From an uncultured Actinomycetota bacterium (GTDB taxonomy: Bacteria > Actinomycetota > Acidimicrobiia > Spongiisociales > UBA5794): DNA of 64,000 nt. Shown one piece after another: positions 3,154 to 59,325 of the stretch. The notes under the pieces were generated by a model. It was given only the letters and a program-made list of their open reading frames with translations. It searched no databases and had not been told where the DNA came from. A program made the translations under genes and the position numbers. The stretch is from contig CAVQRN010000002.1 in the NCBI GenBank assembly GCA_963715255.1, positions 49,185-113,184 on the forward strand, written 5' to 3'. Each line of letters starts with the position of its first letter. The first letter of the stretch is position 1.

Positions 3154-5404
3154 CTACCCAGCGAGAGCACTCAGATAGGCCTTGATCCGCCTCAGCTGTC
3201 CTTCACCGTCGAGCCCTGCTTCATGGACGACCATGTCGCCGGTGCCGGACCCGAGGTAGTGGCCCTTCTCGAAGGGATACATCGTGTGGGCGCGTCCCAG
3301 CTCGCTGTGAATCCACCGATACATGGTCGGCAGCGTGAACCCGGTGATACCCATCGCCTGCTGGGCCGATGCCTCCGGGAAGATCGCCCGTTGCTCGGCG
3401 ATCGAGAGTCTGTCGAACAGTTCGGCGGACGTGACCAGATAGACATCGAGGTCGATCCCCGCCTCTGCCAGCAGCGGCAAGGTCTGATCGACGAAGGCGT
3501 AGGCCACCGCAGAGCCCTGCAGTACCACGGCGGCGTCGGCCGTGCCGGCAGCAGCGCGGCAGCTTGTAGAACCCCTGCGCCGCCATGCCGGCGGCTGCCA
3601 ACCCGAGCGCATCGCGATCGGGAATCGTCTCGCCGGGACGGGTGACGAACGGGGCGATCAGCGCCGGACGGGCCTGGAATGCCGCTGCCACGAGCGGCCA
3701 CATCTCTGCCGGTTCCCAAGGCGTCAGGGTGATGCCCGTGCCCGGTACGAAATTCTCCTGCAACACCTGAAGCGCCTGCGGATCCGCGTGGGTGGGACCG
3801 TCCTCACCGGTCTTCACGCCCGCATGTGCACAGACGAGCACGAACGGCCGGTACGGACCCGGTTCGGTCTCCTGTCGCGCCTGGTTGCCGATCGCGTGGA
3901 GCCGCGCCGGGATGTGTCCCAACGGTGCGAGGAAAGCGGCATACGACGCCACGGCTCCCACATGGATGCCGAAGGCCGATGCTCCGGAGAGCACACACGA
4001 CAGTCCGTCCTCACAGATGCCTCCGACGGACAACGACCGTGCTTCCGGATTGGCCGTCCGATGGTAGAAGCCATCGGGGAATCCTGCCCCTACGTCTGAG
4101 ATCGCCGTCGACCCCAGCAAGTCGGCGGCCCCGATGAGGATCGCCCCGTCGGATTCCCGATTCAGATATCCCAGAACCCTGCCCAGTGCCTGTCGCAGCG
4201 CCAGCTTGTCACCTGGCTCCAACGCAAGTTCGCCCGGCACCGTCGCCGGATCCGCCGCCGCGAATATCCGTTCCACGTCCGGAACCCCGTCGCGGAGCTT
4301 CCTCCCCCGGGTCTCGAGACGATCCTTCGCGCGTGCGATACGGTCGGCCATGGCGGCCGTCATCTCATCGGACTCCAGCAGTGTTCGATACCGTTCCAGT
4401 GCGGCCCACTGCGCCGCTTCGACGGCGACCTCATCCGACGGGTCCGGCCTCTCCCAAGTATCGACGTCGTCACCGAACACGGGCCGCTGGGTGTCGAAGA
4501 ACTCCGGGCTGCACATGGCATGACCGCCACCGTGCGACTTCTTGCCCTCGATGCCGTACTGCCACCCCTTCGTCGTGCGATACACGATCGCGGTGGGCTG
4601 CCCGTTGTCCATCTCGGTCGCCATCCGCTGGGCGGTGAGCACCAACGCGAAGTCGAATCCGTCCGGGACGTAGATCACATTCCAGTCGTGCAGATAGAAC
4701 AACTCCTTCGGATCCCACTGCACGTAGTCGCCGGGTCGGTCGCCCTCGCGAGTCACCGCGTCCGAATCGATCGAGGACTGGTTCCAGTCGACATGCATCA
4801 CCGCATTCGACAGGCCCGCTGTGCCGGCGAACGCCACCGCCTCAACGACCCGCCCCGGAGTCAGCCCACCTTCGCCCTCGATCAGATGCACCCGGGGCGC
4901 GTCGGTGCCGTAGGCGTCGGCAGCCGCCACCGCCAGGCCGAGCGACGATCCAACCCCGATTCCCGATGCACCGGTTGACAGTTTCACGAAGGGCGTCGCA
5001 GGAGTCGGATGCCCATCCAGCGCTTTCGAGCCGAATCGCCGGAACAGAGGGGCCTGCCGGGCCGGATTGCGACGGAACCCGAGCAGATCCTCGAAGCGCA
5101 GCCGTAGATTCGCTTCGTCGGGTAGGAGTTCAGGCCGGGCGATTCGAGCGATCTCGTCGCGCAGGGCGAACATCGCGTACAGACCGAGCGCCTTGTGCCC
5201 GGCCGAGTACGAGATCAAGTCCTGATCCGTGCGGTTCGGATCGCCGATGTCGTAGTCCATGTCGTCGAACAACAACCCCGCCACGATGTGGCCAGACGAC
5301 ACCGAACCACCCGGGTGCCCGGACTGGGCGTAGTTGAACAGCACCGCACACAGCCCTCGGTACACATCGTCAAACCGCTTCAAGGCCGCCAGATCGTCCG
5401 GCAT
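3154..5404 (-). CDS. tkt: transketolase; apparent single-base frameshift near 3560-3600
   Basis: N-terminal SGHPGG TPP-binding motif about 25 aa after the start at 5404. The C-terminal third (VLQGSAVAYAFVDQ...) continues in a different frame (ORF 3154..3612). The upstream frame degenerates into R/G-rich junk after GFYKLP. Confidence 0.75.
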
Positions 5405-6098
5405 CGCTTCCGCCGGCTCTGACACCTCCACCCATGTTGCTCGTCGCGGTCCAAACGCTGGATTCGTGATCACTTCAACTCCTCAACTTGCTCGTTCGAT
5501 GGCGGTGCGCACTCGCCTCCTGGCGGTCTGTCCGATGCACTTCAGACAGCCTACTTGCTCGCCCGATGGTCGATTCCACGGACAGGTGCAGGGGGTCGGC
5601 CAACGTGTCCCATCCCCTAGTCCCGGACTTCCAAGCCTCCAGCTTCCTGCTCTGAGCCATGACGGGCGTCCTTGCCTCATCGCCATGATTCAGGCGCCCA
5701 GAGCCCCCCGGCCCTTCGGGCCACCTCCCCCATAGGCTCAATCCACGGTTGGTGACGTGGGAGAGACCACCCTTCTCCTGTCCCCCCGCCGGAACGGCCG
5801 AGGGACGCGAGGAGCTTGCGACGAGCAGGGGGCCACCAGCGAGTTCACACAAGCGCACTCGCATCCGATAGTGACGAGGCCAACACGGGCCCCCTCTGGC
5901 CTGCCGCCCATCTCCCCAACTGCGTGGAGGAGCGTGTCAGAAAGTCCCGTTCACCCCTTCACCCGGATCGTGACCATCGGCAACGTCTCGAATCCCGGCC
6001 CCACCATGAGACCCCGGCTGAGGCGGAGGAAGAGGCGCCGCCGGCGACCGGAAGCTGGCAACTGGAAGTGGTAGCCGGAATCCGGCTCGTCTCGTGAC

Positions 6099-6686
6099 TC
6101 AAGACTCTCGCAGCAACTCCTCATAGCCCTCAGGCGTGTTCACGTCGAGGGGAGCTTCGCCGGCAACCGGCAGCCTTACGACCCGGTCGTCGCTCGACTC
6201 GATCAGCATTCGACCGAGCACCTTTGCCCCCGTCATCTCCTTCATGGACTCGACGGACGCGCGTGACAAGAGGAACGGATGGGCGACCCGATCGCTGTAC
6301 TCGGTCACACCTGCCCACGGCTTCTCCTCTGCCCAGAGATCGATCATCGAATCGATCGCCTCGGTACGGATCGTCGGCAGGTCGCCCGGTACGAGGACGA
6401 AGGCTTCGGCCTCTCCATCAGTAGCAGTCGCTGTCAACAACGATGACATGTTCCCACGGCGGTAGTCCGGATTTCGTGCGATCGTCGCCCGCCGAGCTTC
6501 CATGGAAGCTTCGATCATTTCTGCTTTGAATCCGACGACAACGATCACCCGGTCAGCGACGCTCGCCTCGACTGCCGCGATCGTCGCGTCGAGCACCGTC
6601 GATCCCCGGTACGGCAGCAGAAGCTTCGGCTGTCCCATCCGCTCGGAGGCTCCTGCGGCGAGAACGATCCCGGTGACCGATGCCAT
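6099..6686 (-). CDS. mocA: MobA-like NTP transferase, probable molybdenum cofactor cytidylyltransferase
   Basis: N-terminal LAAGASERMG nucleotidyltransferase motif. Lies 4 bp downstream of the Mo-binding subunit gene. Confidence 0.75.
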   Translation of the reverse strand: MASVTGIVLAAGASERMGQPKLLLPYRGSTVLDATIAAVEASVADRVIVVVGFKAEMIEASMEARRATIARNPDYRRGNMSSLLTATATDGEAEAFVLVPGDLPTIRTEAIDSMIDLWAEEKPWAGVTEYSDRVAHPFLLSRASVESMKEMTGAKVLGRMLIESSDDRVVRLPVAGEAPLDVNTPEGYEELLRES

Positions 6687-6689
6687 CGC

Positions 6690-8912
6690 TCAGATCCCGA
6701 TGATGTCCTCGGGGAGCACGGGGACCCTCGTCAGGTCTCTCCCCGTCGCAGCACGAATCGCCGCGATGATCGCAGGCGTCGAACTGATGGTGGGAGATTC
6801 CCCGATCCCTTTCGCACCGAACGGACCCCAGTGGTCGCCCTCTTCGATGATCCGGGTCTCAACGTCCGGGGCATCAAGGAAGGTTGGAATCAAGTAGTCC
6901 GTGAAGGTGGGGTTCCGGATGACACCCCCGTCGACGACCAGTTGCTCCATCACGGCGAGGCCCATGCCCTGCATAATGCCGCCCTCGAGTTGTCCAGTGA
7001 TCGCCTGGGGATTGAGCGCCTTGCCGACATCCTGAGCCGTATCGACTCGAACGACACGCACCAGGCCAAGCTCCGCATCGACATCCACGACCGCCCGGTG
7101 GGCGGCGACGACGAAGCCGGCGTGAACATCACCCTGGCCATTCTCATCCGGCGGATACGTTGCTGGATGCCGAAACTGCACGTGTTGCTCGACGGGTCCA
7201 TCGGCGCAGACCTCGGTGATGCTTGCGACGAGCTCGCCGTCGCGATAGACGCCGTCGTCACGCAGCTCATCACCATCGTGTTTGGCGAGGATCTGATCTC
7301 GGAGCCCAACGGCTGCGGCATGCACCGCACCGCCGGTCATCTGTGTCTGGCGGGACGCCGAAGTTGATCCGGCCGATCCGATCTGCGACGTGTCATCCCA
7401 CACGACGGCGACACGATCGGTGCCGAGAATCGTCCTGGCGATCTGCTGGCACACTGTCACGAGTCCCTGTCCGACTTCCATGGCAGCGGTGTGCACCTCG
7501 ACGCCTGCCGTGGTCATCACGGCCCGGGCCTCGGCGAAGTCGTCAAAGCCTTCGGAGAAGGCGAGGTTCTTGAGCCCGACGGCGTACCCGATGCCCCGCA
7601 CGACCGAAGACGACGGAGTAGTCAAACCGGTCCCGCCTGGGAGCAGCCGCGGATCGTCACTGTGAAGCGGTTCCGGCAGCGGAATCGCTTCGACCGCGTC
7701 GATCACGGCAACCGTGGGGAGCGAGCCTTGGATGATCTGCCCGGAGGTTGCGATGCGATCACCGGGAGCGAGCGCGTTGCGTCGCCGAAGATCGAGCGGA
7801 TCCATGTCGAGCGCCTCGGCGAGGCGATCCATCTGCATCTCGGATCCGAAACACGTCTGCACCGCCCCGAAGCCGCGCATCGCTCCGCACGGCGGATTGT
7901 TGGTTCTGGCGGCGATCGCATCAACCACGACGTTGTCACACCGGTATGCACCGACGGTGAAGAACGCCGCGTTGGCCAGTACCGCCCGGCTGGTGTGGGC
8001 ATACGCTCCACCGTCGAAGATGAGGCGTGCCGTGACCTTGACCAGGTTCCCGTCTTCGTCTGCCTCGTGGCGATACCACATGCGCGACGGGTGACGCTTC
8101 ACGTGACCCACAAACGATTCGGAACGGTCGTACACCATCTTCACCGGACGCCCCGTAGCCAGCGAGAGCATGGCGACGTGGATGTGGAGCGAGATGTCCT
8201 CTCGGGATCCGAATGCGCCGCCGATGCCGGCAGGGTGGCAACGAATCTGGTCCGGCTCCATGTCGAGGCAGGCGATGATCTGTCGGTGGTCGACGTGAAT
8301 CCACTGGCTTGTGATGTACAGATCGAGGCCGCCCTCCCCGTCGGGGATGGCGAAGCCTGCTTCCGGTCCGAGAGGAGCCTGATCCTGGGTAGCGGTCTCG
8401 TAGAACCCTTCGACAACGACCGATCCGACCGCTGCCTCATCACCGCGCCGGACCTTCATCTCCCTGAACGTGAATCCTTCGTCGGCGGCCTTGTCCGGGT
8501 CGACAACGGGCTCCAGCGGCTCCCACTCGACCACGATCGCAGCAGCGGCACGTCTGGCCGTCTCCTCGTCCTCGGCGGCCACGACGGCAACCGGTTCGCC
8601 CCAATACCGGGCGATGCCGTCGCAGAGCACGGGCTGATCCTGCTCCTCCTGTCCGAACAGCGGTTCGCCCGGTACGTCGTCCTGTGTCAGGACCGCTCGA
8701 ACGCCGGAGATAGCCAGCGCAGGAGCGATGTCGAGCTTCAGGAGCCGGGCGTGGGCGTGGGGGCTTCGCAGTGTGGCGCCCCACAACATGTCCTCCGACG
8801 AGAGATCGGACGCATACGCGAAGCTCCCGATGACCTTCGGCTTGCCATCGGGTCGGCGCACGCTCGTTCCGATGCCGCCGACAATCCGGGGTTTGGTGCG
8901 TGTTGTCATGAT
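6690..8912 (-). CDS. xanthine dehydrogenase/aerobic CO dehydrogenase family molybdopterin-binding large subunit
   Basis: About 740 aa with the aldehyde oxidase/xanthine dehydrogenase a/b hammerhead and Mo-binding regions (PRIVGGIGTSVRRPDG, FGAKGIGESP). The start MTTRTKP at 8912 overlaps the small-subunit stop by ATGA. Confidence 0.9.
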   Translation of the reverse strand: MMTTRTKPRIVGGIGTSVRRPDGKPKVIGSFAYASDLSSEDMLWGATLRSPHAHARLLKLDIAPALAISGVRAVLTQDDVPGEPLFGQEEQDQPVLCDGIARYWGEPVAVVAAEDEETARRAAAAIVVEWEPLEPVVDPDKAADEGFTFREMKVRRGDEAAVGSVVVEGFYETATQDQAPLGPEAGFAIPDGEGGLDLYITSQWIHVDHRQIIACLDMEPDQIRCHPAGIGGAFGSREDISLHIHVAMLSLATGRPVKMVYDRSESFVGHVKRHPSRMWYRHEADEDGNLVKVTARLIFDGGAYAHTSRAVLANAAFFTVGAYRCDNVVVDAIAARTNNPPCGAMRGFGAVQTCFGSEMQMDRLAEALDMDPLDLRRRNALAPGDRIATSGQIIQGSLPTVAVIDAVEAIPLPEPLHSDDPRLLPGGTGLTTPSSSVVRGIGYAVGLKNLAFSEGFDDFAEARAVMTTAGVEVHTAAMEVGQGLVTVCQQIARTILGTDRVAVVWDDTSQIGSAGSTSASRQTQMTGGAVHAAAVGLRDQILAKHDGDELRDDGVYRDGELVASITEVCADGPVEQHVQFRHPATYPPDENGQGDVHAGFVVAAHRAVVDVDAELGLVRVVRVDTAQDVGKALNPQAITGQLEGGIMQGMGLAVMEQLVVDGGVIRNPTFTDYLIPTFLDAPDVETRIIEEGDHWGPFGAKGIGESPTISSTPAIIAAIRAATGRDLTRVPVLPEDIIGI

Positions 8913-9367
8913 CCCTCCCCGGTCACGGTCTCGAAGGCGCGCAGAATGGCTCCATACCCGGTGCAACGGCAGATGTTGCCCGAGAGCGCCTCCCTGATCT
9001 CGGGCTCGGTCGGGTGCGGATTGACCTCGAGCAGATGGGAGCCGGCGACGACGAAGCCGGGAGTGCAGAAACCGCACTGGACAGCGCCTTCGGCCAGCAT
9101 CGCCTCTTGAACGGGGTGAAGTTCGGTGTCGGAGGAGAGCCCTTCGACGGTGGTCACCGTTGACCCGTCGGCGTCCGCTGCCATCACGAGGCAAGAGCAG
9201 AGGGATTCGCCGTCGAAGATGACCGTGCAGGATCCGCACTCGCCTTGTTCACAGGCATCCTTCGTCCCGGGAAGGTCGAGATCGTTCCGGAGGGCGTGCA
9301 GCAGGCTCTCGTGTCCTGCCACGTCGACAACTCGGTCCTTGCCGTTGACGGTGATCGTGACGTTCAT
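8906..9367 (-). CDS. (2Fe-2S)-binding small subunit of the molybdenum hydroxylase
   Basis: Both cluster motifs are intact: CEQGECGSC...C and QCGFCTPG...CRCTGY. 153 aa. Confidence 0.9.
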   Translation of the reverse strand: MNVTITVNGKDRVVDVAGHESLLHALRNDLDLPGTKDACEQGECGSCTVIFDGESLCSCLVMAADADGSTVTTVEGLSSDTELHPVQEAMLAEGAVQCGFCTPGFVVAGSHLLEVNPHPTEPEIREALSGNICRCTGYGAILRAFETVTGEGS

Positions 9368-10164
9368 AGGAGACTCCGTTCCACGAGCCGTCTTGCCAGC
9401 ACACCAGAGGCGTGTCTCCGATAGGCCTCCGTCGATCGATGGTCGGTGATCGGCCGAACTTCGTCGGAGACGATACGGGCGAACTCTGCGAGAACGGATT
9501 CCGAGATTGTCGACTCGGCATTGATCATCTCTTCGGCCCGGGTGGCGCGCATCGGCGTTGTGGCGACCGATCCGAGCGCGACGCGGATACCGTCGTCGCC
9601 GCGGATGACCACGCAACTGACAGTCGAGATCACCATGGCGTTCCGGGCCCCCACCTTCGCGAACTCCTGTGCGCTTGACACGTCTTCGGGTACCACGACG
9701 GCGGTGATGATTTCGTCGGCCGCCAATGAGGTCCGCTTCACACCCGTGAAGAACTCGTTCCACGGGATTGTCCTGGTTCCGCGTTCCTTGGATCGGACTT
9801 CGATCGAAGCATCTGCGGCAGCGATCCACGGCAATCCGTCACCGGCCGGACTCGCCGTGCCGACGTTCCCTCCGATGGTTCCTGCGGCACGGATCTGGGG
9901 TGAGCCGACGGTTCTCGCTGCCTGAGCGAGGCCTCGATGACGGTCCCGTTCAAGTCGGGCCCAGGTGACACCGGCGCCGATGCGCGTTGGTGTCACCTCC
10001 CGGAGTTCTTCGACCCGTCTCAAGGAGAGAATTCGGGACGGTCGGTGGTGTGCAAGGTTGACCTCAACCATGAGGTCGGTTCCTCCGGCGAGGAGCTGCG
10101 CATCCGGCTGCTGAGCCTTCACTGCGAGCGCTTCGTCGAGGTCGTGGGCAGCAACGAATTCCAT
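9364..10164 (-). CDS. FAD-binding medium subunit (CoxM/XdhB-like) of the molybdenum hydroxylase
   Basis: LLAGGTDLMVEVN FAD-binding motif, CO dehydrogenase flavoprotein C-terminal region, translationally coupled to the small subunit. Confidence 0.85.
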   Translation of the reverse strand: MEFVAAHDLDEALAVKAQQPDAQLLAGGTDLMVEVNLAHHRPSRILSLRRVEELREVTPTRIGAGVTWARLERDRHRGLAQAARTVGSPQIRAAGTIGGNVGTASPAGDGLPWIAAADASIEVRSKERGTRTIPWNEFFTGVKRTSLAADEIITAVVVPEDVSSAQEFAKVGARNAMVISTVSCVVIRGDDGIRVALGSVATTPMRATRAEEMINAESTISESVLAEFARIVSDEVRPITDHRSTEAYRRHASGVLARRLVERSLL

Positions 10165-10229
10165 GGACCCAACTTAGTCGATTGAACCCTGCCGGTCGGT
10201 ATGAGGCCGCCACTTCTCCCCTGACAAGA

Positions 10230-10296
10230 TCGAGCTACGAGCTGCCGGCTACCGGCAGTCCCCACTCAGCTACTCAGCTACTCAGCTACTCAACCG
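10230..10296. repeat. octamer repeat array (GAGCTAC x2, CTACTCAG x3 plus a small palindrome CCGGCTACCGGCAG)
   Basis: The last repeat unit provides the TGA stop of the amidohydrolase gene. Confidence 0.75.
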
Positions 10297-11654
10297 ACGA
10301 GCCGCGCCGCGGCCATATGGTGCTTCTCGATCAAGACCGGCAGCTCAACACCGACCAGTTCTCCGTCCTTCACGACTGCCCGTCCATGCACGTAGTTCTG
10401 GTCGACACCAGTCGGCGCGACAAAGAGCACGGCGGCAACCGGATCGTGGAGCGCACCGGCATACTCCAAACGGTCGAGCGAGATGGCGATGAAGTCCGCT
10501 CCCTTTCCTGGCTCCAGCGAGCCGACATCGTCCCGCCCGAGGACCGCGGCCGAACCGCGGGTTGCGATCCGAAGTGCTTCTCGTGCCGTGAGCAACCGGC
10601 CGCCTTCGATCGACGGGGCGGCTGCCAGCCGCGCAAGCAGCATCGCCTGCCGGGCTTCGGCGATCAGGTGACTGCCATCGTTGCTCGCCGAGCCGTCCAC
10701 GCCGAGACCGAGTCGAACATTGGACGCCAAGTAGCGCCGGACCGGAGCGATGCCGGATGCGAGGCGCATGTTCGATGACGGACAGTGGGCTACTCCGGTC
10801 CCCGATTCGGAGAGTCTTTCAATCTCGGCGTCGTTGATGTAGATGCCGTGGGCATACCAAACGTCATTGCCAACCCATCCCAGGTCCTCCATGAGTTCGA
10901 CGGGGCGCCGCCCGAACGTCTCGATGCAGAACTGCTCCTCGTCGTGTGTCTCGGCGACGTGGGTGTGGAGATGGACGCCGTAGCGCCGGGCCAGTGCGGC
11001 GGATTCGCGCATCAGGCCCGCGGTCACGGAGAACGGTGAACACGGTGCGACGACGACGCGGGTCATGGCTCCGGGTGCCGGATCGTGGAACGCGTTGATC
11101 ACCCGTTCAGTGTCAAGAAGGATCGTCTCGTCGTCCTCAACCACCGAGTCGGGAGGCAGTCCCCCGTCGCTCTCACCGAGACTCATCGAACCTCTGGCGG
11201 CATGGAAACGCAGCCCAACCGCTGCTGCACCCGCGATCTGGTCGTCGAGGCTCGACCCATTCGGGAAGAGGTACTGGTGGTCAGACGAGGTCGTGCAGCC
11301 GGAGAGTGCCAATTCGGAGAGGGCGAGCTGTGTCGAGATTCTCACATCGTCCGGAGTGAGGCGTGCCCATATGGGATAGAGCGTGCGGAGCCAGTCGAAC
11401 AGGCCAACGTCCTGTGCGCCGGGCACGGCGCGGGTCAGCGTCTGATAGAAGTGATGGTGTGTGTTGATGAGTCCGGGAAGCACGACATGCCCGGAGAGGT
11501 CCACAACGTCGTCGGCCGTCTCGGGAAGCTCCGCGGTCGAGCCGACCTGTTCGATGAACCCGTCGACGGCGAAGAGGCCCCCGTCGCTGATCTCCGTTCC
11601 AGCGTCGTCCATGGTGGCGAGAACCTGCGCGTGCCGAACGAGAAGTGTGCTCAT
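10290..11654 (-). CDS. amidohydrolase superfamily (COG0402), guanine/8-oxoguanine deaminase-like
   Basis: HHHFYQT metal-binding motif and the remaining His/Asp ligands of the TIM-barrel amidohydrolase fold. Start MSTLLVRHAQ at 11654. Confidence 0.75.
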   Translation of the reverse strand: MSTLLVRHAQVLATMDDAGTEISDGGLFAVDGFIEQVGSTAELPETADDVVDLSGHVVLPGLINTHHHFYQTLTRAVPGAQDVGLFDWLRTLYPIWARLTPDDVRISTQLALSELALSGCTTSSDHQYLFPNGSSLDDQIAGAAAVGLRFHAARGSMSLGESDGGLPPDSVVEDDETILLDTERVINAFHDPAPGAMTRVVVAPCSPFSVTAGLMRESAALARRYGVHLHTHVAETHDEEQFCIETFGRRPVELMEDLGWVGNDVWYAHGIYINDAEIERLSESGTGVAHCPSSNMRLASGIAPVRRYLASNVRLGLGVDGSASNDGSHLIAEARQAMLLARLAAAPSIEGGRLLTAREALRIATRGSAAVLGRDDVGSLEPGKGADFIAISLDRLEYAGALHDPVAAVLFVAPTGVDQNYVHGRAVVKDGELVGVELPVLIEKHHMAAARLVG

Positions 11655-11756
11655 AGAGAACAATGTACCAACCCGACCGTGGTCGTCCGTCGGTAGTCGG
11701 GTCCCCGCTTCCTCGATACAATGGCGAGACGGGGTCGAAGAAGAGGAGCGACGAAC

Positions 11757-12497
11757 ATGATTACGCAGTACCACCGACCGCTCACGCTCGAAGAGGCGGT
11801 CGCGCTCACCGCACGACCCGATGCCGTGATCATCGCCGGAGGAACCTCCGTCAATGCCGACCCCGGCCGCAGGCCCGCCACCGCTGTTGACCTGCAAGCG
11901 CTCGACCTCGCAGGAATCGACACCGACGGCGAGTCCATCCGTATCGGTGCGACAACACGCCTCCAAGATCTCGTCGATTCGACACTCGTCCCTGTCGTGC
12001 TCCGCGATCTCGCCCGACGGGAAGCACCGAATACCATCCGCAATGCCGCAACGATTGGCGGAACGATCGGGGCCGTCGATGCAGAGAGCGAACTACTTGC
12101 CGGCCTGCTCGCGTTCGGATCGAGCGTAACGCTCGTGCGTGCCGGTTCGACGACCGAGCATGCTCTCGACGAGATCCTCGACGACCCGGCGCTGCTCAAC
12201 GGAGCCATCATGACCAGCGTATCCATCCCGTCCAACGGACTCGCCGCAGCCGATCGGACCGGTCGCACCCCCATGGATCGGCCGATCGTGATGGCCGTCG
12301 CACACCGGGACCACAAAGGGACCGTTCGGCTGGCCATGACCGGTGTCTTCACCCGCCCCGTTGTGGTCGATCCAGAGCAGATCTCCAGCCTTGATCCACC
12401 ATCCGACTTCCGGGGCTCGCCGGGCTACCGCAAGAACCTTGCCGAGGTACTCGCAGGCAGGGTCCTCGCCACCGTCACCGGAGGTGAACGAACATGA
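11757..12497 (+). CDS. FAD-binding molybdopterin dehydrogenase subunit, second copy
   Basis: AGGAG RBS before the ATG at 11757. IIAGGTSVN FAD motif. Overlaps the next gene by 4 bp. Confidence 0.75.
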   Translation: MITQYHRPLTLEEAVALTARPDAVIIAGGTSVNADPGRRPATAVDLQALDLAGIDTDGESIRIGATTRLQDLVDSTLVPVVLRDLARREAPNTIRNAATIGGTIGAVDAESELLAGLLAFGSSVTLVRAGSTTEHALDEILDDPALLNGAIMTSVSIPSNGLAAADRTGRTPMDRPIVMAVAHRDHKGTVRLAMTGVFTRPVVVDPEQISSLDPPSDFRGSPGYRKNLAEVLAGRVLATVTGGERT

Positions 12498-15388
12498 CGA
12501 TCACCCTCACGATCAACGGGACAAGGCGTTCTCTCCTCTGCGAGCCGCACGAATCTCTCCGCACCGTGCTCCGTCGGGCGGGTTATCACAGTGTTCGGTA
12601 CGGATCGGGAACCGGCGAGACGGGGGCGGCCGCAGTCCTCGTTGACGGCCGCCTCATCTCTGCCGATGTCATGCTCGCCGCACAGGCCGACGGTCATGAC
12701 GTCGAGACGGTCGAAGGCCTGAGCGCGCCAGGCACGCTCCACCCGATCCAGGAAGCGTTCATCGAGACCGGGGCAATTCAGTCGGGCTACTCAACACCTG
12801 CCACGATCCTGGCGGCGAAAGCCCTCATCGACCGGAATCCCGACCCGACGGAGAACGAAGTCCGTGACGCTCTCTCCGGAATCCTCGACAGAGAGACCGG
12901 CTACCTCCGACCGGTCCATGCGGTCCTCCGCGCCGCTGCGGTGTTGCGCGGTGAAACGCCGGAGAGCATCGACGTGGTCTCCCTCGACGCTCTCGTCGGC
13001 ACCGACGGCCAACACGCCGGCACGGACGGCATCAGCGTCATCGCCCCGCGTGTCGTCCCGAGTTCCGACGTCCCCGAAACTCGCGTCGTCGGCAAGCCCG
13101 AGACGAAGGTTGATGCACTCAAACTGGCGAAAGGCAATCCTGCGTTCACCGACGACGTCGATCTGACCGGAATGCTGATCGCAAAGGTGCTCTACAGCCC
13201 CCACGCTCATGCCAGGATCGTTGCCATCGACGATTCGGAAGCGCGGGCGCTGCCCGGCGTTCACGCCGTGCTCCATCACGGCAATGTCTCCCGAGTGCGG
13301 TACGCGTCGGGCGGTCAGAGCTACCCGAATCCGCTCCCCTATGACCAGGTCAGTTTCGACAACAAGGTCCGTTTCGTTGGTGACCGCGTCGCTGCCGTCG
13401 CCGCCGACACCGAGGAGATCGCCCTTGCGGCCGTCGCCTTGATCGATGTCACCTACGAGGTGCTCCCTGCCGTCTTCGATGAGAACGATGCGATCCTCGA
13501 CGGTGCGCCGGTGATCCACGATGAAGCCGACATGGAGGGGGCGCACGACGCCTCCCACAACCTTGTCCATCACATCCAAGCCCAGACCGGCGACGTTGCA
13601 GACGGGTTCGCGAGCGCCGACCGCGTCTTCCAACACACGTCGCGCGTCCACCAGGTCCAGCAGGCACCGATCGAACCACACATTGCGATCTCGGCCTGGG
13701 ACAGCGACGAGCGGCTCGTCATCACATCATCGACCCAGGTGCCCTTCCACGTCCGACGGATGGTCGCTCCGCTGCTCGGGTTGCCGGTGAAGAAGATCCG
13801 AATCATCAAGCCGCGCATCGGCGGCGGTTTCGGCGTCAAACAAGAGATGTTGATCGAGGACATCGTCGGCCACCTCACGATCGTGACCGGCCGTCCGGTT
13901 CGGCTTGAACTCACCCGCGAGGAGGAGTTCATCTCGAGCCGGACCCGACATCCGCAAACGATCACGTTCAAGACCGGCGTCGACGCAAGAGGCAAACTGA
14001 CCGCCCAAGAGATGCGCGTCGTCGCCAACACCGGCGCCTACGGAACCCACGGCCTCACGGTGCAGATGGTGACCGGCCTCCGGGGACTCAGTTCCTACAA
14101 CTCCCCGCTGAAGCGATTCGATTGCAGGGTCGCATACACGAACATCCCAGTCCCAGGGGCCTACCGCGGGTACGGGGCTCCACAGGCGCTCTACGCCCTG
14201 GAGACTCACATGGAGGACATTGCCGACGAACTCGGCATGGACGCAATCGAATTCCGCCGACTGAACTGGACCGGCGTCGGCGACCCGCTCGACATCGCCC
14301 CTCAACTCGGTGAGGGCGACCAGGATGCCAGCGTGATGCCGGTCGTGACATCGAGCGGTCTCGAGGAAGCCGTCGCTCAGGGACAGCGGGCAATCGGATG
14401 GAACCGACGAACCGACGCAGAGTGGCATCGGCCCGCCGACCGACCGAACATCCGCCGGGGCCTCGGATTTGCGATGGCGATGCACGGCACCGCGATCCCC
14501 GGCCTCGACATGGGTGGTGCGAGCCTCAAGATCAACGACGACGGTTCATTCAACTTGCTGGTTGGCGCCACCGATCTTGGAACCGGGTCGGACACGGTGC
14601 TGGCGCAGATCGCTGCGGAAGTGGTCGGTGTACGAACCGATGACATCATCGTCTACTCATCCGACACCGACATGACTCCATTCGATGTTGGTGCGTATGC
14701 GTCGAGCACGACCTACATCTCGGGGATGGCCACCAAACGCGTGGCCGAACAGGTTCGTAGTCAGATCATCGAACGCGCGGCCCTCATGCTCGGCGTCGAA
14801 GGGGACTCGATCGATCTCTACGACGGGTCGGCATGGTCGACCGACGGGCAATCGGTGACGCTTGAGAAGATCGCACTATCCACGCTCCACCAGGAGGGCC
14901 AGCATCAGATCATGGCGGACGCGTCCTACGTCTCGCCGGAGTCGCCTCCACCATATGCGGCCCAGTTCGCTGAGGTCGAGGTTGACATCGAGACGGGGCA
15001 GGTGACCGTCAATCAACTCGTGATGGCGGTCGACTGTGGCGTCCCGATCAACCCGGTCACGGCGTCCGGGCAGGTCGAAGGCGGGATGGTGCAGGCCCTT
15101 GGGTACGGGCACTGCGAGGAGATGGTGTACGACCAGGACGGACGGATGCTCAATCCGCAGTTCGGCCCGTACAAGATCTACCGCGCCGACGAGATGCCAC
15201 GACTCGAGGCGATTCTGGTACAGACGATGGAACCGAGTGGTCCCTTCGGAGCCAAGGCAATCGCCGAGATCCCGAAGGACGCCGTCGCCCCTGCCATCAG
15301 GAACGCGATCGTAGACGCAACCGGTGTTCGGATCGCCAACATCCCGTTCACACCGGAACGCGTCTGGAACGCGCTGCAGCAAGCGTGA
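12494..15388 (+). CDS. fused ferredoxin-like (cysteine-less) and molybdopterin-binding subunit of a xanthine dehydrogenase family enzyme
   Basis: The N-terminal 150 aa align to CoxS but all eight Fe-S cysteines are replaced (YGSGTGETGAAAV; SGYSTPA; DRETGY). About 800 aa follow with the Mo-binding large subunit fold. Confidence 0.8.
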   Translation: MTITLTINGTRRSLLCEPHESLRTVLRRAGYHSVRYGSGTGETGAAAVLVDGRLISADVMLAAQADGHDVETVEGLSAPGTLHPIQEAFIETGAIQSGYSTPATILAAKALIDRNPDPTENEVRDALSGILDRETGYLRPVHAVLRAAAVLRGETPESIDVVSLDALVGTDGQHAGTDGISVIAPRVVPSSDVPETRVVGKPETKVDALKLAKGNPAFTDDVDLTGMLIAKVLYSPHAHARIVAIDDSEARALPGVHAVLHHGNVSRVRYASGGQSYPNPLPYDQVSFDNKVRFVGDRVAAVAADTEEIALAAVALIDVTYEVLPAVFDENDAILDGAPVIHDEADMEGAHDASHNLVHHIQAQTGDVADGFASADRVFQHTSRVHQVQQAPIEPHIAISAWDSDERLVITSSTQVPFHVRRMVAPLLGLPVKKIRIIKPRIGGGFGVKQEMLIEDIVGHLTIVTGRPVRLELTREEEFISSRTRHPQTITFKTGVDARGKLTAQEMRVVANTGAYGTHGLTVQMVTGLRGLSSYNSPLKRFDCRVAYTNIPVPGAYRGYGAPQALYALETHMEDIADELGMDAIEFRRLNWTGVGDPLDIAPQLGEGDQDASVMPVVTSSGLEEAVAQGQRAIGWNRRTDAEWHRPADRPNIRRGLGFAMAMHGTAIPGLDMGGASLKINDDGSFNLLVGATDLGTGSDTVLAQIAAEVVGVRTDDIIVYSSDTDMTPFDVGAYASSTTYISGMATKRVAEQVRSQIIERAALMLGVEGDSIDLYDGSAWSTDGQSVTLEKIALSTLHQEGQHQIMADASYVSPESPPPYAAQFAEVEVDIETGQVTVNQLVMAVDCGVPINPVTASGQVEGGMVQALGYGHCEEMVYDQDGRMLNPQFGPYKIYRADEMPRLEAILVQTMEPSGPFGAKAIAEIPKDAVAPAIRNAIVDATGVRIANIPFTPERVWNALQQA

Positions 15389-16176
15389 ACACGATTGGTC
15401 CCCGGGACATCCTGGCGGAGTTGACCGCCGCCGCCGATGGTGGACGACCGGTCGTGCTCGCCACCATCGTCGGAACCGAGCGGTCGGTCCCCCGGCACGC
15501 GGGCGCCAAGATGGTCGTGCACGCGGATGGGACCACAGTCGGGACGATCGGTGGTGGCGAGGTCGAAGCCCTTGTTCGCGACGAAGCCCTGGCCGTGCTG
15601 AAGGATCGAAGCCCTCGCCTCCGCAGCTTCACGCTCAACGATCCTGAGCAAGGCGACCCCGGTATCTGCGGGGGCACAATGACCGTCTATCTGGAGCCAT
15701 ATATGACCCCGCGCACCGTGTACGTCATCGGAGCCGGTCACGTCGGTCGCTCCGTCGTCGACCTCGCCGACTGGCTCGGGTACCGCACCGTCGTCGTCGA
15801 CGACCGGGCCGACCTCGTGACCGAGGAGGCCATGCCGAATGCCGGCGTCCGCTTCACGGGCTCCGTGAAGGACGCCCTCGCTGAGCACCCTGCAGATGAA
15901 ACCACCGCCGTCGTCGTCGTGACGAGGAGTCACGAGCTCGACGCCCAGATTCTGCCGATCCTCCTCGAAACGTCCGCTCCCTACATCGGTGTGATGGGTA
16001 GCAAACGCCGGTGGGCAACGACCCGGGAAGCACTGGTCGAATCGGGCACGTCCGCCGAGGCGCTTGGCCGGGTCCACGTTCCGATCGGCCTCAGCATTGG
16101 TGCCGAGACCGTCGAGGAGATCGCTGTGTCGATCATGTCCGAGATCATCGAGTCGGCTGCGGCGAGCAACGGGTGA
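15385..16176 (+). CDS. xdhC: XdhC/CoxI family molybdenum hydroxylase maturation factor
   Basis: XdhC N-terminal domain (VVLATIVGTERSVPRHAGAKMVV) and Rossmann-like C-terminal domain. 4-bp overlaps on both sides. Confidence 0.8.
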   Translation: MNTIGPRDILAELTAAADGGRPVVLATIVGTERSVPRHAGAKMVVHADGTTVGTIGGGEVEALVRDEALAVLKDRSPRLRSFTLNDPEQGDPGICGGTMTVYLEPYMTPRTVYVIGAGHVGRSVVDLADWLGYRTVVVDDRADLVTEEAMPNAGVRFTGSVKDALAEHPADETTAVVVVTRSHELDAQILPILLETSAPYIGVMGSKRRWATTREALVESGTSAEALGRVHVPIGLSIGAETVEEIAVSIMSEIIESAAASNG

Positions 16177-16979
16177 TCGACTTCTCCGACCATCTCGTCG
16201 TCGTCCGCGGCGGCGGCGACCTCGGGTCCGGTGTCATTTGGCGTCTGGCTCGGGTTGGTTTCCCCGTCGTCGTCCTCGAACTCGAGCGTCCTCTGACGGT
16301 GCGGCGCACCGTTGCTTTCTCGTCGGCCGTCGACCAGGGACGCGTCGTGATCGACGGCATCGAGGGCGTCTTGGTCTCCTCGGCCGAAACGGCCATCGAG
16401 ACCGCCGAGAGGGGCGCTGTGCCGGTTCTCGTGTCCCCCGACGTCCCTGTGCTTCCCATGCCGATCTCAACGCTCGTCGATGCCCGACTTGCCAAACAGG
16501 TACTCGACACGACCATCGACCGGGCACCGTTCGTCGTTGGACTCGGCCCCGGGTTCGTCGCGGGTCGCGATTGCGATGCGGTCATCGAGACGATGCGCGG
16601 CCACCGACTCGGTCGGGTCATCTGGGACGGACCGGCAGCACCGAACACCGGCGTCCCCGGCGAGATCGGTGGCGCATCCGGAGATCGTGTGCTCCGGGCG
16701 GAAACTGACGGTGAGCTCCGGTGGAACGTCTCCTTCGGTGACCGCGTCGAACCGGGCCGGCTGCTCGGCACCATCGAGGGCACTCCGGTGAAGGCGAAGA
16801 CCGGGGGAACGGTGCGCGGCCTGATCCAGCCGGGACCCGTCGAGATCGGTCTCAAGATCGGCGACGTTGACCCCCGATTCGATCCAGATGCCATTCATCA
16901 GATCTCCGACAAAGCACTCTCGATCGGCGGCGCCGTGCTCGAAGCCATCCTCGTCCGGGCGGGCGGCGCCGGAAGATGA
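16173..16979 (+). CDS. yqeB: selenium-dependent molybdenum hydroxylase system protein, YqeB family
   Basis: GTG start overlapping the xdhC stop. N-terminal LVVVRGGGDLGSGVIWRLARVGFPVVVLE matches the YqeB family N-terminal region as I recall it. Confidence 0.7.
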   Translation: MIDFSDHLVVVRGGGDLGSGVIWRLARVGFPVVVLELERPLTVRRTVAFSSAVDQGRVVIDGIEGVLVSSAETAIETAERGAVPVLVSPDVPVLPMPISTLVDARLAKQVLDTTIDRAPFVVGLGPGFVAGRDCDAVIETMRGHRLGRVIWDGPAAPNTGVPGEIGGASGDRVLRAETDGELRWNVSFGDRVEPGRLLGTIEGTPVKAKTGGTVRGLIQPGPVEIGLKIGDVDPRFDPDAIHQISDKALSIGGAVLEAILVRAGGAGR

Positions 16980-17692
16980 CGGCACCGCTGAGAGATCGCT
17001 TCGGTATCGGCTCGCGCGAGCTCGTCTCGATCGTCGGTGCAGGCGGCAAGTCCACGATCCTCTTCGCTCTCGGGCGCGAGCTTGCCGGCTCGTCGGGTCG
17101 GGTCGTTCTCACGACGACAACGAAGATGGCAATCGACCAAGTCACCGAGCCGATCTGTTGGTCGGATGACCCGGCCGTTGTCGAGGCGGCACTCGTTCCG
17201 GGGCATCCGGTGTTCGTGGCGATGGGCCGGATCCCCGGCAAGGTCACCGGCCCTTCACCGGAGGCTGTCGATCGCCTCTTCTCCGAGACGACGGCCCAGT
17301 ACATCCTGGTCGAAGCCGACGGGGCTCGGTCGATGTCGATCAAGGCGCCGGCCGATCACGAGCCGGCAATCCCAAGTAACTCGACCACGGTGATCGTGGT
17401 CGCCGGCATCGATGCCACCGGCCGGCCAATCTCCGAGGTAGCGCATCGCCCCGATCTCGTCGCGAGGATCACAGGTATTGGAGCAGACGACGTCTTGACC
17501 ATCGAGGGCGCCGCTTCCGTCCTTCTCCACCGGAGTGGCGGCCTGAAGGGAATCCCAGATGCCGCACGAGTGGTGATGGCGATCACAAAAGTGACCCCGG
17601 ACGACGAACAAGGAGCGAACCAGTTGGCGGCAATCCTCGAACGCCACCCAAGGACCGACATGACGATCAAATTGGGGACTTCTCAGCTTTGA
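16976..17692 (+). CDS. yqeC: selenium-dependent hydroxylase accessory protein YqeC
   Basis: LVSIVGAGGKSTILFALGREL...VVLTTTTKM P-loop signature, as I recall for the YqeC family. 4-bp overlap with yqeB. Confidence 0.7.
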   Translation: MTAPLRDRFGIGSRELVSIVGAGGKSTILFALGRELAGSSGRVVLTTTTKMAIDQVTEPICWSDDPAVVEAALVPGHPVFVAMGRIPGKVTGPSPEAVDRLFSETTAQYILVEADGARSMSIKAPADHEPAIPSNSTTVIVVAGIDATGRPISEVAHRPDLVARITGIGADDVLTIEGAASVLLHRSGGLKGIPDAARVVMAITKVTPDDEQGANQLAAILERHPRTDMTIKLGTSQL

Positions 17693-17740
17693 GCGGGCCC
17701 GCCGAGGGAGAACACCTGCTCCGCTACTCCGGCACTCCCC

Positions 17741-19143
17741 TACCCGACCACTGATTCCGGCAGCAACGCATTCGTTCCACGATGCAGATACTCCCCGCGC
17801 CCGGGTTCGCCGACGAATTCACCGAGATCGACGATGACCTCTCCGCGCAGCATGACGGTCTCGACGCGGCCACCGATCTCCGCACCCTCGAAGACCGAGT
17901 AATCGAGATTCATCGAATGCGTCGCTGCAGACAGTGTGTGTGATGCGGCAGGGTCGTAGATGACGACGTCGGCGTCGGACCCGGGAGCGATACGTGCCCT
18001 TCTTCGGGTAGATCCCGGACAGCTTGGCAGGCGTCTCCGCGGTTACTTCGATCCACCTGGTGAGTGGAATCCAGCCTTCCACGACACCCTGGTAGACGAG
18101 ATCCACTCGGTGCTCGACAACGCCGAGGCCGTTCGGGATCTTGCGGAAGTCTCCCCGCCCCGCCTCCTTCTGCTTCCACGTGAACGGGCAGTGGTCGGTG
18201 GCGACCGCGTCGATCCTGCCGGTCGAGACCCCGGACCACAGCGCCGCTTGGTGTCCTTCACTGCGACGCCGCAGCGGTGGCGAACAGACGAACTTCGCTG
18301 CCTCGAATCCCTCGGGGAGGTCCTCCTGGGCGAGCCAGAGGTACTGGGGACAGGTTTCGGTGAAGACGGGCAGGCCCCGATCACGAGCGACGACGGCCTC
18401 AGCGAATGCATCCTGCGAAGAGATGTGCACGATCACAAGAGCGCATCCCACGATTTCCGCGAGTGCGGCAACACGATGGACGGCTTCGGCCTCCATCGAG
18501 GCCGGTCGGGTCAGCAGGTGGTAGATCGGATCGGTCTCGCCTCGGGCAATGGCCTGATCCCGAAGGGCGTCGATGGCGATTCCGTTCTCGGCATGCATCA
18601 TGATCGTGGCGCCGATCGAGGCAGCGACCTGCATCGCTTCGAGGATCTGCCGATCGTCAGACAGATTCACGCCCGGGTACACGGTGAAGAGCTTGAAGGT
18701 GGTGACCCCCGCATGCATCATCTCGGCGAATTCGCCGAGCGTGCCTTCATGGACGTCGGTGACCATCATGTGGAATCCGTAGTCGATGAACGACTTCCCC
18801 TCGGCGCGATCCATCCATTCGGCGAGTCCGTCTTTGAGCGTTCCTCCCCGTGTCTGGCCGGCGTAGTCGACGATCGTCGTTGTCCCACCGATAGCAGCAG
18901 CCCTCGTGCCCGTCTCATACGTATCTGCCGACGACGTCCCAGAGACCGGCAACTCCATGTGCGTATGCATGTCGACGCCGCCGGGAATCACGTACCGTCC
19001 GGTGGCGTCGATCACTCGGTCGAATTCGTCTCCCGCTGCGCCGGGTTCGACGACACCGACGATGCGCTCTCCCTCGACGACGACATCTGCCTCCGTCGCC
19101 ACGGCACCCGTCACGACCGTTCCGTTACTGATGAGTGTTCGCA
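17741..19143 (-). CDS. dihydropyrimidinase/D-hydantoinase (cyclic amidohydrolase); apparent +1 insertion frameshift near 18003
   Basis: DMHTHME metal site, carboxylated-Lys region and DHCPF motif. After ...PAKLSGIYPKKGT the frame switches. The alternative frame gives the expected IAPGSDADVVIYDP...LRGEVIVD C-terminus. Start MRTLISNG at 19143. Confidence 0.75.
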
Positions 19144-19269
19144 TGGTCCCATCATGGTCGATGACGCGGCGGTGCACGAGTAGGGGCCGAAGGTCGCAAC
19201 ACCGCATCTCTGTGGCAGCGTAGGAGTTGTTGAGTAGTGCGATTGCCCAGATCGGCTTACGATCGGTCC

Positions 19270-19600
19270 CCCCGGCCGCGTCTTCTTCCTCCCCCTCAGG
19301 GGGAGGTGCCGCCCGTAGGGCGGCCGAGGGGGTCAAAGAGTCCCGTTGTGCGAACCGCGAACCATACAACGGTCCCCTCGGCGTCTTGTTCTTCCTCCCC
19401 CTCAGGGGGAGGTGCCGCCCGCAGGGCGGCCGGAAGGGGGTCGAAGGGGTTCCGATTCGCGAATCGCGAACCATACAACGGTCCCCTCGGCCGTAGGCCG
19501 GGGGGACGCGGAGCGAAGCGACGCAGGGGGGCGTCTTCTTCTTCCTCCCCCTCAGGGGGAGGTGCCGCCCGCAAGGCGGCGGTGGGGGTCGGACCGTGAC
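19270..19600. repeat. imperfect tandem repeat (units about 105-145 bp, about 2.6 copies). Each unit carries two adjacent perfect GC-rich hairpins: CCTCCCCCTCAGGGGGAGG and GCCGCCCGYAGGGCGGC
   Basis: Three copies of TTCTTCCTCCCCCTCAGGGGGAGGTGCCGCCCG-AGGGCGGC start near 19281, 19389 and 19535. Two copies of CGCGAACCATACAACGGTCCCCTCGGC are interleaved. Sits in the divergent region between the dihydropyrimidinase and DUF222-HNH genes. Confidence 0.75.
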
Positions 19601-19787
19601 CGGTGTGGGACCCCCGCCAGGGCTCCTCAGACTTCTTCGGCAACCCTGCTGTGTGAGCCGGTTTCTTGTCTTACCTGGTTGATACGTTGCGCATATGGAC
19701 ACGACAGACGACTCTGACGATGGATGCGATCGAACAGTCCCTCGCCGACGGCGAGGCGACGATCGCTGAGGGTCCGCGCGGTCTCAG

Positions 19788-20849
19788 ATGGTGTTGATTC
19801 GTGAAGCCGACCGCCGGCAGGCGCCGCTCGCAGACGGCTGCCGGTCTCTCGCAGAGTGGGTGACGGGCCGTCTCGATGTTGCACCAGAGACGGCGAAGAC
19901 CTTGGTGTCGACGGCTCGGCGTCTCGAATCGCTCCCCACGGTCGAACACGCCACCGCCGTCGGGTCGATCAGCTTCGATCGGACCGTCGAGGCGGCCCGG
20001 ATCGCTCTCCCATCCGAAGACGCCACGATCGTCGACGAACTTGCCGTCTTCGACGTCGCTGCGATTCGGCGTCTCGTGTCGAACCGGCACCGCATGACCC
20101 GTGACACAGAGCGTGAAGTGTTCGAGACCCGCTATGTGGCGGTGCAGGCGAACCTGGACGAGTCGTCGTGGCGGGTCCACGGACAACTCCCCGCCACAGC
20201 CGGCAGATGCTTCGTTGACGCCCTCGACGCCAAAGCCGACCAGTTACCACCCGATCCGGACGGGGATCGCAGTCGGACGACCCGCTACGCCGATGCGTTG
20301 TGGGCCATCAGCGTCGACTCGCTCGCTGGTAGCGACGGCGCCACGGTCGAATCTGCGACACCGCTGTTGACCGTCTTCGTCGACGCCCACGATGCTGCCG
20401 GGACGAACGGTGAGACCGGCGTGATGATTGAAGCCGGACCCAGAGTCGGACCCGCAACGATCGAAGCGATCCTCTGCGACGGGGTCATCGAAGTCACCGG
20501 CCGAACACAAGACGGCACACCGGTGAATATGGGACGCCGCAGCCGCACCATCCCACCCAGGCTGAAACGCTTCGTTCTCGCCCGCGACGGCGGCGTGTGC
20601 ACCATTGCGGGCTGTGTCAGTAGGTACCGGCTCCAACCACACCACATCACCCCCTGGTCCCAAGGCGGCGCCACCGACGCCGACAACCTCACCACACTCT
20701 GCTGGTTCCACCACCACGTCGTCATCCACGGCCGAGGCTTCACCATCAACCCCTCATCCCCACCCCAACGCCGCCGACTCCGTCGACCATGGATCCACGC
20801 TCCACCGCCGCGGTCCGACTACGCGGGTGACATTCATGTTCACTACTAG
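19788..20849 (+). CDS. DUF222 plus HNH endonuclease domain protein (mycobacterial REP13E12-type); the N-terminus looks short or possibly frameshifted
   Basis: C-terminal HNH motif HHITPWSQGG...NLTTLCWFHH. DUF222-like central region. A 25-aa ORF (19719-19796) in another frame abuts the start. Confidence 0.7.
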   Translation: MVLIREADRRQAPLADGCRSLAEWVTGRLDVAPETAKTLVSTARRLESLPTVEHATAVGSISFDRTVEAARIALPSEDATIVDELAVFDVAAIRRLVSNRHRMTRDTEREVFETRYVAVQANLDESSWRVHGQLPATAGRCFVDALDAKADQLPPDPDGDRSRTTRYADALWAISVDSLAGSDGATVESATPLLTVFVDAHDAAGTNGETGVMIEAGPRVGPATIEAILCDGVIEVTGRTQDGTPVNMGRRSRTIPPRLKRFVLARDGGVCTIAGCVSRYRLQPHHITPWSQGGATDADNLTTLCWFHHHVVIHGRGFTINPSSPPQRRRLRRPWIHAPPPRSDYAGDIHVHY

Positions 20850-59284: not shown

Positions 59285-59325
59285 GCTCGCCCGTTCCTAG
59301 CCTCTCACGGCCGGTAGCCTCGATG

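Follow-up and report, generated by a model that had tools for sequence, protein, structure and literature searches.

A candidate purine-catabolic molybdenum-enzyme locus with a likely selenium-dependent XdhD-YgfM module in an uncultured member of the Acidimicrobiia

What does the second of two adjacent molybdenum hydroxylase modules do in an uncultured Actinomycetota bacterium of the class Acidimicrobiia, and does its enzyme depend on selenium? We analysed a 64,000-nucleotide (64-kb) stretch of contig CAVQRN010000002.1 (hereafter the window), in which positions 6099-19144 encode both modules together with xdhC, yqeB, yqeC and a mocA-like gene. We interpret the locus as a purine-catabolic molybdenum-enzyme island, a compact counterpart of a region known from E. 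coli, with a likely selenium-dependent XdhD-YgfM module, and assign this reading a probability of roughly 0.65. How molybdenum (Mo) hydroxylases acquire their labile selenium ligand has, to our knowledge, yet to be worked out mechanistically, and we know of genetic work on this step only in clostridia and enterococci. The locus and its relatives show a minimal conserved unit, with the enzyme, XdhC, YqeB, YqeC and sometimes SelD encoded in one translationally coupled operon. XdhC and YqeB are separate proteins here, an arrangement that lends itself to heterologous expression and to studying what each factor does.

Inspection of open reading frames (ORFs) and start sites, combined with NCBIfam and Pfam scans, reproduced the eleven genes in the order and on the strands given by the first-pass annotation, an earlier reading of the sequence. 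The features of the locus are as follows (FAD, flavin adenine dinucleotide; Fe-S, iron-sulfur).

6099-6686, minus strand: MobA/MocA-like nucleotidyltransferase, probable Mo-cofactor cytidylyltransferase (PF12804, 115 bits)
6690-8909, minus strand: molybdopterin-binding large subunit, PucD-like, of an enzyme of the conventional xanthine dehydrogenase (XDH) type with three subunits (TIGR03196 pucD, 741.7 bits)
8906-9367, minus strand: small subunit with two [2Fe-2S] domains (Pfam Fer2_2 and Fer2; all Cys ligands)
9364-10164, minus strand: FAD-binding medium subunit, XdhB/CoxM-like (PF00941, PF03450)
10290-11654, minus strand: 8-oxoguanine deaminase-type amidohydrolase (NF006055, 668.7 bits)
11655-11756, no strand: divergent intergenic region with two conserved -10-like boxes
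11757-12497, plus strand: YgfM-like FAD subunit, partner of an XdhD-type enzyme (TIGR03312, PF00941)
12494-15388, plus strand: XdhD-type fused FeS-like/Mo subunit, 964 amino acids (TIGR03313 is the best NCBIfam family)
15385-16176, plus strand: XdhC-family Mo-cofactor insertion chaperone (PF02625, PF13478)
16173-16979, plus strand: YqeB, selenium-dependent molybdenum cofactor biosynthesis family (TIGR03309)
16976-17692, plus strand: YqeC, selenium cofactor biosynthesis family, P-loop nucleoside triphosphatase (NTPase) (TIGR03172, PF19842)
17740-19144, minus strand: HyuA-like D-hydantoinase/dihydropyrimidinase with a one-base insertion at 17993, convergent on yqeC

The plus-strand genes form a five-gene operon, ygfM-xdhD-xdhC-yqeB-yqeC, with overlaps of 4 nucleotides (nt) at all four junctions (ATGA, GTGA, GTGA and ATGA). 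The translational coupling of yqeB and yqeC to xdhC that had been proposed is thereby borne out, xdhC ending at 16176 and yqeB starting at 16173 (GTGA) and yqeB and yqeC overlapping at 16976-16979 (ATGA). The minus-strand module contains two 4-nt overlaps, both ATGA, through which the CoxS-type small subunit gene overlaps both of its neighbours.

A genome collection was scanned with the XdhD-like protein, and the locus proteins were compared by tblastn across the 80 loci returned (L001-L080). XdhD in these relatives is 70-94 % identical to the window protein, and dozens of metagenome-assembled genomes of Acidimicrobiia and Chloroflexota carry the operon. The order ygfM-xdhD-xdhC-yqeB-yqeC is kept in about 55 of the 80 loci and the full two-module layout in about a dozen Acidimicrobiia loci. 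The high-GC actinobacterial origin supposed at first pass agrees with the GC content (61-66 %) and with the labels of the XdhD relatives, which are mostly Acidimicrobiia, Actinomycetota or Chloroflexota. Between Acidimicrobiia and Chloroflexota XdhD is 70-85 % identical and its operon partners only 40-75 %, which suggests transfer of the operon between phyla and unusually strong constraint on XdhD. The best match, L001 (94 % XdhD identity), is labelled Saprospiraceae and may be a mis-binned contig. The occurrence of yqeB and yqeC in an actinobacterium is genuine, as had been proposed, but not new to databases, since orthologs from Acidimicrobiia already carry the names YqeB and YqeC at NCBI. 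The locus belongs to a known system and public annotation pipelines already name its genes correctly, so that as a single finding it is unsurprising.

The selenium-cofactor trait comprises SelD, YqeB and YqeC (Haft & Self 2008, PMC2276186), and the window shares with it adjacent YqeB and YqeC genes beside XDH-family genes and xdhC. The first-pass annotation had taken both proteins as markers of this system and proposed a check against hidden Markov models of the two families; both ORFs score well above the trusted cutoffs. YqeB reaches 300.6 bits on TIGR03309 (cutoff 220, E=8.6e-90), covering model positions 1-254 of 256, and YqeC reaches 173.8 bits on TIGR03172 (cutoff 73.05, E=3.9e-51) and 133.9 bits on PF19842 (cutoff 27.6). 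Co-occurrence of YqeC with YqeB, a signature of the trait, takes the form of adjacency here, and the pair is kept in about 50 related loci. XdhC is 35 % identical to residues 2-249 of E. coli YqeB, and the window YqeB is 47 % identical to residues 268-525 of the same protein. The 541-amino-acid E. coli YqeB aligns to XdhC and then YqeB in order, and the window therefore carries the split form; in Haloarcula, as in E. coli, the YqeB homolog is fused to XdhC (PMC2276186). The window YqeC is 36 % identical to its E. coli counterpart.

YqeB shares the motif DC.AVIET.RGH with E. coli, with Cys134 and His144 invariant. We found no sequence relative of YqeB or YqeC in the PDB. In the predicted structure of YqeB (predicted local distance difference test score, pLDDT, 86.7) a Rossmann-like domain precedes a beta domain that resembles barrel-sandwich or biotinyl-type domains. 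The YqeC model (pLDDT 94.7) shows the fold of a SIMIBI-class P-loop NTPase, and its Walker A motif is invariant. Structural neighbours of YqeC include ArsA/Get3, HypB, UreG and CooC, metallocentre-assembly NTPases among them. Judging from these models, YqeB may be a chalcogen relay or a cofactor-binding protein and YqeC may drive a nucleotide-dependent assembly step.

Linkage of the operon to selD is found among the relatives. In five Chloroflexota loci (L012, L018, L020, L022 and L024) selD lies immediately 3′ of yqeC on the same strand, and these operons encode XdhD proteins 81-83 % identical to that of the window. The L012 selD ORF starts about 50 nt after yqeC and its product scores 335 bits on TIGR00476. 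The operon-linked SelD of the Chloroflexota relatives (L012, 15241-16431) has an extra N-terminal CxxC...CxxC segment, zinc-ribbon-like, before the SelD core. In L079 a gene for a selenocysteine (Sec)-type SelD (16241-17311) lies two genes from the operon; this SelD is itself a selenoprotein, because an in-frame UGA falls at the active site (HGAG-U-ACK). Many of its database homologs are 322-329 amino acids long, consistent with gene calls truncated at the UGA codon. Related metagenomic lineages contain many Sec-type SelD homologs, at least one of them labelled Acidimicrobiia; these are not tied to this genome and were not used as linkage evidence.

Zhang et al. in 2008 reportedly also dealt with the selenium-cofactor utilisation trait. 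TIGR03309 has been found only in selD-positive genomes (Haft & Self 2008, PMC2276186). In C. difficile selD and yqeB, but not yqeC, are required for xanthine and urate use (PMC11448449), and the urate reductase of C. sporogenes is inactive when produced in a selD mutant (bioRxiv 10.1101/2025.04.24.650524). All gut strains with the reductive urate pathway have YqeB, YqeC and SelD (bioRxiv 10.1101/2025.04.24.650524). The trait has been studied in Firmicutes and Proteobacteria, and the window lineage lies outside both. Selenium dependence of the predicted XdhD-type enzyme appears likely.

The product of the fused gene, described at first pass as coxS/L and part of an otherwise undefined purine/pyrimidine hydroxylase, is colinear with E. 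coli XdhD (37 % identity, residues 1-955 against 1-963). TIGR03313 is its best NCBIfam family at 715.9 bits, yet below the cutoff of 1101.9. It has the XdhD architecture of an N-terminal CoxS-like domain and Mo-binding domains, and its gene directly follows that of a short YgfM-type FAD subunit. The YgfM-like subunit, whose best NCBIfam family is TIGR03312 (91 bits, below cutoff), is 32 % identical to E. coli YgfM and keeps the FAD motifs AGGT and TIGG. The catalytic Glu of the XdhD-like protein is conserved, and the equivalent of E. coli Glu606, a residue proposed to orient urate (PMC12507026), is likewise Glu, both here and in 78/78 orthologs recovered full-length. With NADH, the purified E. 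coli enzyme XdhD-YgfM converts urate reductively to 2,8-dioxopurine (PMC12507026, 2025), and the steps after urate reduction involve YgfK, SsnA and HyuA (PMC12507026). By homology we infer that the XdhD-YgfM homolog in the window most likely interconverts urate and 2,8-dioxopurine.

The next enzymes of this pathway are found beside the operon in relatives. With E. coli pathway proteins as queries, YgfK and SsnA were located next to it in L023, L025, L027, L029, L034, L039 and L059. L023 has the two-module layout of the window followed by hyuA-ygfK-ssnA, and its YgfK scores 886 bits on TIGR03315 (cutoff 835). SsnA, the uricolytic marker that has been profiled, is reported in Actinomycetota and Chloroflexota (PMC12507026). 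The reductive urate/2,8-dioxopurine pathway (PMC12507026; bioRxiv 10.1101/2025.04.24.650524) has in common with the window an XdhD-type first enzyme and a HyuA homolog. It was described in anaerobic gut bacteria, whereas the window represents an environmental member of the Acidimicrobiia with part of the pathway, and the newly described route would extend to environmental Acidimicrobiia and Chloroflexota. Only a distant relationship connects the window enzyme with the clostridial urate enzyme (DOPDH, XdhAC), which has no FAD subunit.

For protein comparison we took the E. coli K-12 region b2863-b2888, which includes xdhABC-ygeWXY-hyuA-yqeA-yqeB-yqeC-mocA-ygfK-ssnA-ygfM-xdhD-guaD (b2866-b2883). 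Common to both are a three-subunit XDH, a fused XdhD with its YgfM partner, YqeB, YqeC, MocA, a HyuA-type hydantoinase and an amidohydrolase of the guanine deaminase superfamily; ygfM and xdhD overlap by 4 nt in both, for E. coli according to the annotated coordinates, and both XdhD proteins lack all Fe-S Cys ligands. The window differs in encoding XdhC and YqeB as two overlapping genes, where E. coli has one 541-amino-acid fusion, and in carrying the accessory genes inside the xdhD operon, where those of E. coli lie in a separate divergent unit. It lacks ygfK, ssnA, ygeW, ygeX, ygeY, yqeA and the sigma-54 regulator, its deaminase is of the 8-oxoguanine type, and protein identities are only 30-47 %.

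The minus-strand module encodes a conventional xanthine dehydrogenase with PucCDE-type features, namely three subunits, a complete set of Fe-S ligands and the Glu/Arg/Glu motifs. The PucD-like Mo subunit narrowly misses the TIGR03196 cutoff (741.7 against 783.65 bits), has the Pfam domains Ald_Xan_dh_C, MoCoBD_1 and MoCoBD_2, and retains the active-site motifs GGAFGSRE, RGFG and GESP. The CoxS-type small subunit has Cys at every canonical ligand position, and the XdhB/CoxM-like FAD subunit scores 174 bits on NF043083, below cutoff. The amidohydrolase, called guanine-deaminase-like at first pass, points instead to 8-oxoguanine deaminase: its 668.7 bits on NF006055 exceed the cutoff of 532, and guanine deaminase models score far lower. 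An assignment of this protein to SsnA was ruled out, SsnA models giving 126-129 bits against 669 for 8-oxoguanine deaminase. Of the two flanking genes earlier described as ring-opening hydrolases, the hydantoinase retains that description, while the enzyme at 10290-11654 is a deaminase that would make urate from 8-oxoguanine. As to the earlier statement that mocA implies a molybdopterin cytosine dinucleotide (MCD) cofactor, the MobA-like domain is clearly recognised (PF12804, 115 bits), but the protein falls short of the MocA equivalog, scoring 138.5 bits on TIGR03310 (MocA/YgfJ) against a cutoff of 186.45; it is 30 % identical to E. coli MocA. An MCD-type cofactor made by this MocA-like protein is plausible from sequence.

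In the mechanism that we propose for the island, 8-oxoguanine deaminase and the conventional XDH of the minus-strand module would both yield urate, and the MocA-like cytidylyltransferase would convert the cofactor to its MCD form. The XdhD-YgfM-type enzyme of the plus-strand module would, by homology, interconvert urate and 2,8-dioxopurine. XdhC would hold and insert the Mo cofactor, while YqeB, a protein with one invariant Cys, and YqeC, an NTPase of the kind driving metal-centre assembly, would replace or install a labile terminal chalcogen ligand on Mo. This ligand would most likely be selenium, supplied from SelD-made selenophosphate. The HyuA-type hydantoinase would open a ring in a reduced derivative of urate.

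Several observations weigh against this interpretation, the first of them concerning selenium. In agreement with the first-pass annotation, tblastn with three SelD sequences and Pfam scans of the larger ORFs, picked across the window by a composition-based call, detected no selD or other selenium gene in the 64-kb window, selD, selA, selB and selU all being absent. In the two-module Acidimicrobiia relatives, the closest of which are L001, L002, L009, L011, L021, L023, L026, L063 and L074, none of these genes lies within 10 kb of the operon. The L079 selD stands in its own conserved mgtE-selD-decarboxylase context, which two SelD homologs on large contigs keep without the operon; the L079 linkage is therefore weak evidence and the nearness may be coincidence. 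Acidimicrobiia are assumed to be mostly aerobes. The selenium-cofactor trait occurs mostly in anaerobes (PMC5029168), and our literature search found no demonstration of selenium dependence for E. coli XdhD itself.

The absence of selD from the window and from the neighbourhood of the operon in these relatives favours a reading in which the same machinery is selenium-independent in this lineage, YqeB and YqeC being dedicated maturation factors of XdhD-type enzymes that install sulfur or assist cofactor insertion in a genome without selD. A survey of 5200 genomes found some with YqeB or YqeC homologs but an incomplete selenium trait and suggested possible selenium-independent roles (PMC5029168), and deletion of yqeC had no phenotype in C. 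difficile (PMC11448449). We consider this reading unlikely, though it is the strongest of the competitors. The equivalog cutoffs that YqeB and YqeC clear by a wide margin were designed to tell selD-linked members from other homologs. No SelD has been observed for the window organism; in the five Chloroflexota relatives whose XdhD is 81-83 % identical, selD is the next gene inside the same operon, and the many Sec-type SelD homologs of related metagenomic lineages also speak against this reading.

The island interpretation with a urate-active enzyme is challenged further by the XdhD-like protein itself, which falls under the TIGR03313 equivalog cutoff (716 against 1102 bits), matches XdhA models almost as well in its Mo domain (679 against 716 bits) and is 34.5 % identical to E. 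coli XdhA. Its substrate is uncertain because of this nearly equal similarity to XdhA. The following steps of the reductive pathway, ygfK and ssnA, are absent from the window, in which tblastn finds no remnants of ygfK, ssnA or ygeW. The enzyme might act on another N-heterocycle or only oxidatively, for example as a second purine/pteridine hydroxylase feeding the minus-strand module, a reading with which the absence of ygeX, ygeY and yqeA and an Arg in the AYRGYG motif, where E. coli XdhD has Gln, are also consistent. Its best solved-structure match is HcrA of 4-hydroxybenzoyl-CoA reductase (PDB 1rm6; 363.8 bits over residues 192-961); HcrABC differs in having its own Fe-S subunit with full ligands. 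We know of no link between HcrABC and YqeB or YqeC. We judge such a different activity improbable, given that the protein agrees with XdhD in its entire architecture, in its N-terminal domain without Cys, in its YgfM partner and in the Glu606 equivalent, that the same operon is flanked by ygfK, ssnA and hyuA in close relatives, and that neighbouring genes in the window would make urate.

The last point of doubt is hyuA, which is frameshifted in this assembly by an extra base at 17993, leaving the last ~80 residues out of frame. With this base removed the product scores 517.6 bits on TIGR02033 (cutoff 393.25), and its 42 % identity to E. coli HyuA is spread over two frames. The insertion is absent from L001 and from L082, a JGI (Joint Genome Institute) metagenome contig 99.3 % identical over 7.1 kb. 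Elsewhere in the window, a transketolase-like gene (3221-5473) has a one-base insertion at about 3558 relative to L001, where it is intact (772 amino acids), and an ABC exporter is split into ORFs 59188-59922 and 59924-61096, with the break at about 59922. Because the 17993 base is missing from L001 and L082 and further genes in the window look broken by indels, all three breaks are probably assembly errors and not gene decay. That the locus is decaying, with ygfK and ssnA lost and hyuA a pseudogene, would fit the frameshift and the HNH/DUF222 gene and triple repeat found where L023 has ygfK-ssnA, but is very improbable in view of the intact hyuA frames of L082 and L001, the assembly errors to which the other indels point and the uninterrupted frames of the ten other locus genes.

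Between hyuA and the HNH/DUF222 gene lie three copies of a ~63-nt repeat (19264-19582), each with the palindrome CCTCCCCCTCAGGGGGAGG; the 28-nt repeat core occurs nowhere else in the window. The gene itself (19788-20849), which directly adjoins the locus, encodes a DUF222 + HNH endonuclease and marks the point where synteny with L023 breaks, and together with the repeats it occupies the position of ygfK-ssnA in L023.

The one truly puzzling point of the locus is the Fe-S-like domain of the XdhD-type enzyme. The N-terminal domain of the XdhD-like protein (12494-12960, ~155 amino acids) matches the [2Fe-2S] model PF01799 without having any of the canonical Cys ligands. The loss is common to the window protein, E. 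coli XdhD (L081, 23317-23790) and 78/78 extractable orthologs; at the ligand positions the window protein has STASDSSDE and E. coli XdhD has DADNSSNSD, against Cys throughout in the window CoxS. As a hallmark of XdhD this loss was derived here from the E. coli protein and is not a published criterion. We also looked for alternative Cys clusters in the XdhD-like protein and rejected them, its 4 Cys in 964 residues being scattered and only 1 common with E. coli. The Cys-less domain is not discussed in PMC12507026, and database names still read Fe-S binding. Were the clusters really missing, FAD and Mo could not be wired as known for the xanthine oxidase family, and the domain poses a concrete biochemical question as to how electrons move in XdhD-YgfM. 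We tentatively propose, as a possibility that we hold to be less likely than not, both that XdhD types with a cluster-free CoxS-like domain and an FAD subunit rely on another physiological donor or on a path for electrons that has not been described, given true absence of the clusters, and that the XdhC-YqeB-YqeC set, with selD in some operons, is a widespread trait of free-living Acidimicrobiia and Chloroflexota rather than one of gut anaerobes.

The ATG of ygfM at 11757 is preceded by a GAGGAG ribosome site. The divergent intergenic region contains a -10-like TACAAT on the plus strand and AATGTACC, which reads TACATT on the minus strand. When 11 related loci are aligned, AATGTACC does not vary and a TAnAnT box recurs about 35 nt upstream of ygfM, and we regard both boxes as putative -10-like elements. 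A consensus scan for promoters and terminators gave sites not above the number in shuffled sequence, and an Rfam scan of 5000-21000 at E<=0.1 returned neither a riboswitch nor any other RNA.

Pfam scans of the larger ORFs identified housekeeping genes in the rest of the window, including smpB, ftsEX, prfB, secA, hpf and ahcY, along with acyl-CoA carboxylase genes and a methylmalonyl-CoA mutase. The stretches 46064-47922 and 47995-48873 hold cofD and cofE for F420 biosynthesis, relevant to a proposed F420-dependent variant of 2,8-dioxopurine reductase. The window also encodes a glycosylase of the Fpg family, a type of enzyme that excises oxidised purines from DNA, and a connection with the 8-oxoguanine deaminase is possible. 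Towards the end of the window, a ThiF/MoeB-family adenylyltransferase gene (62738-63475) possibly serves molybdopterin synthesis.

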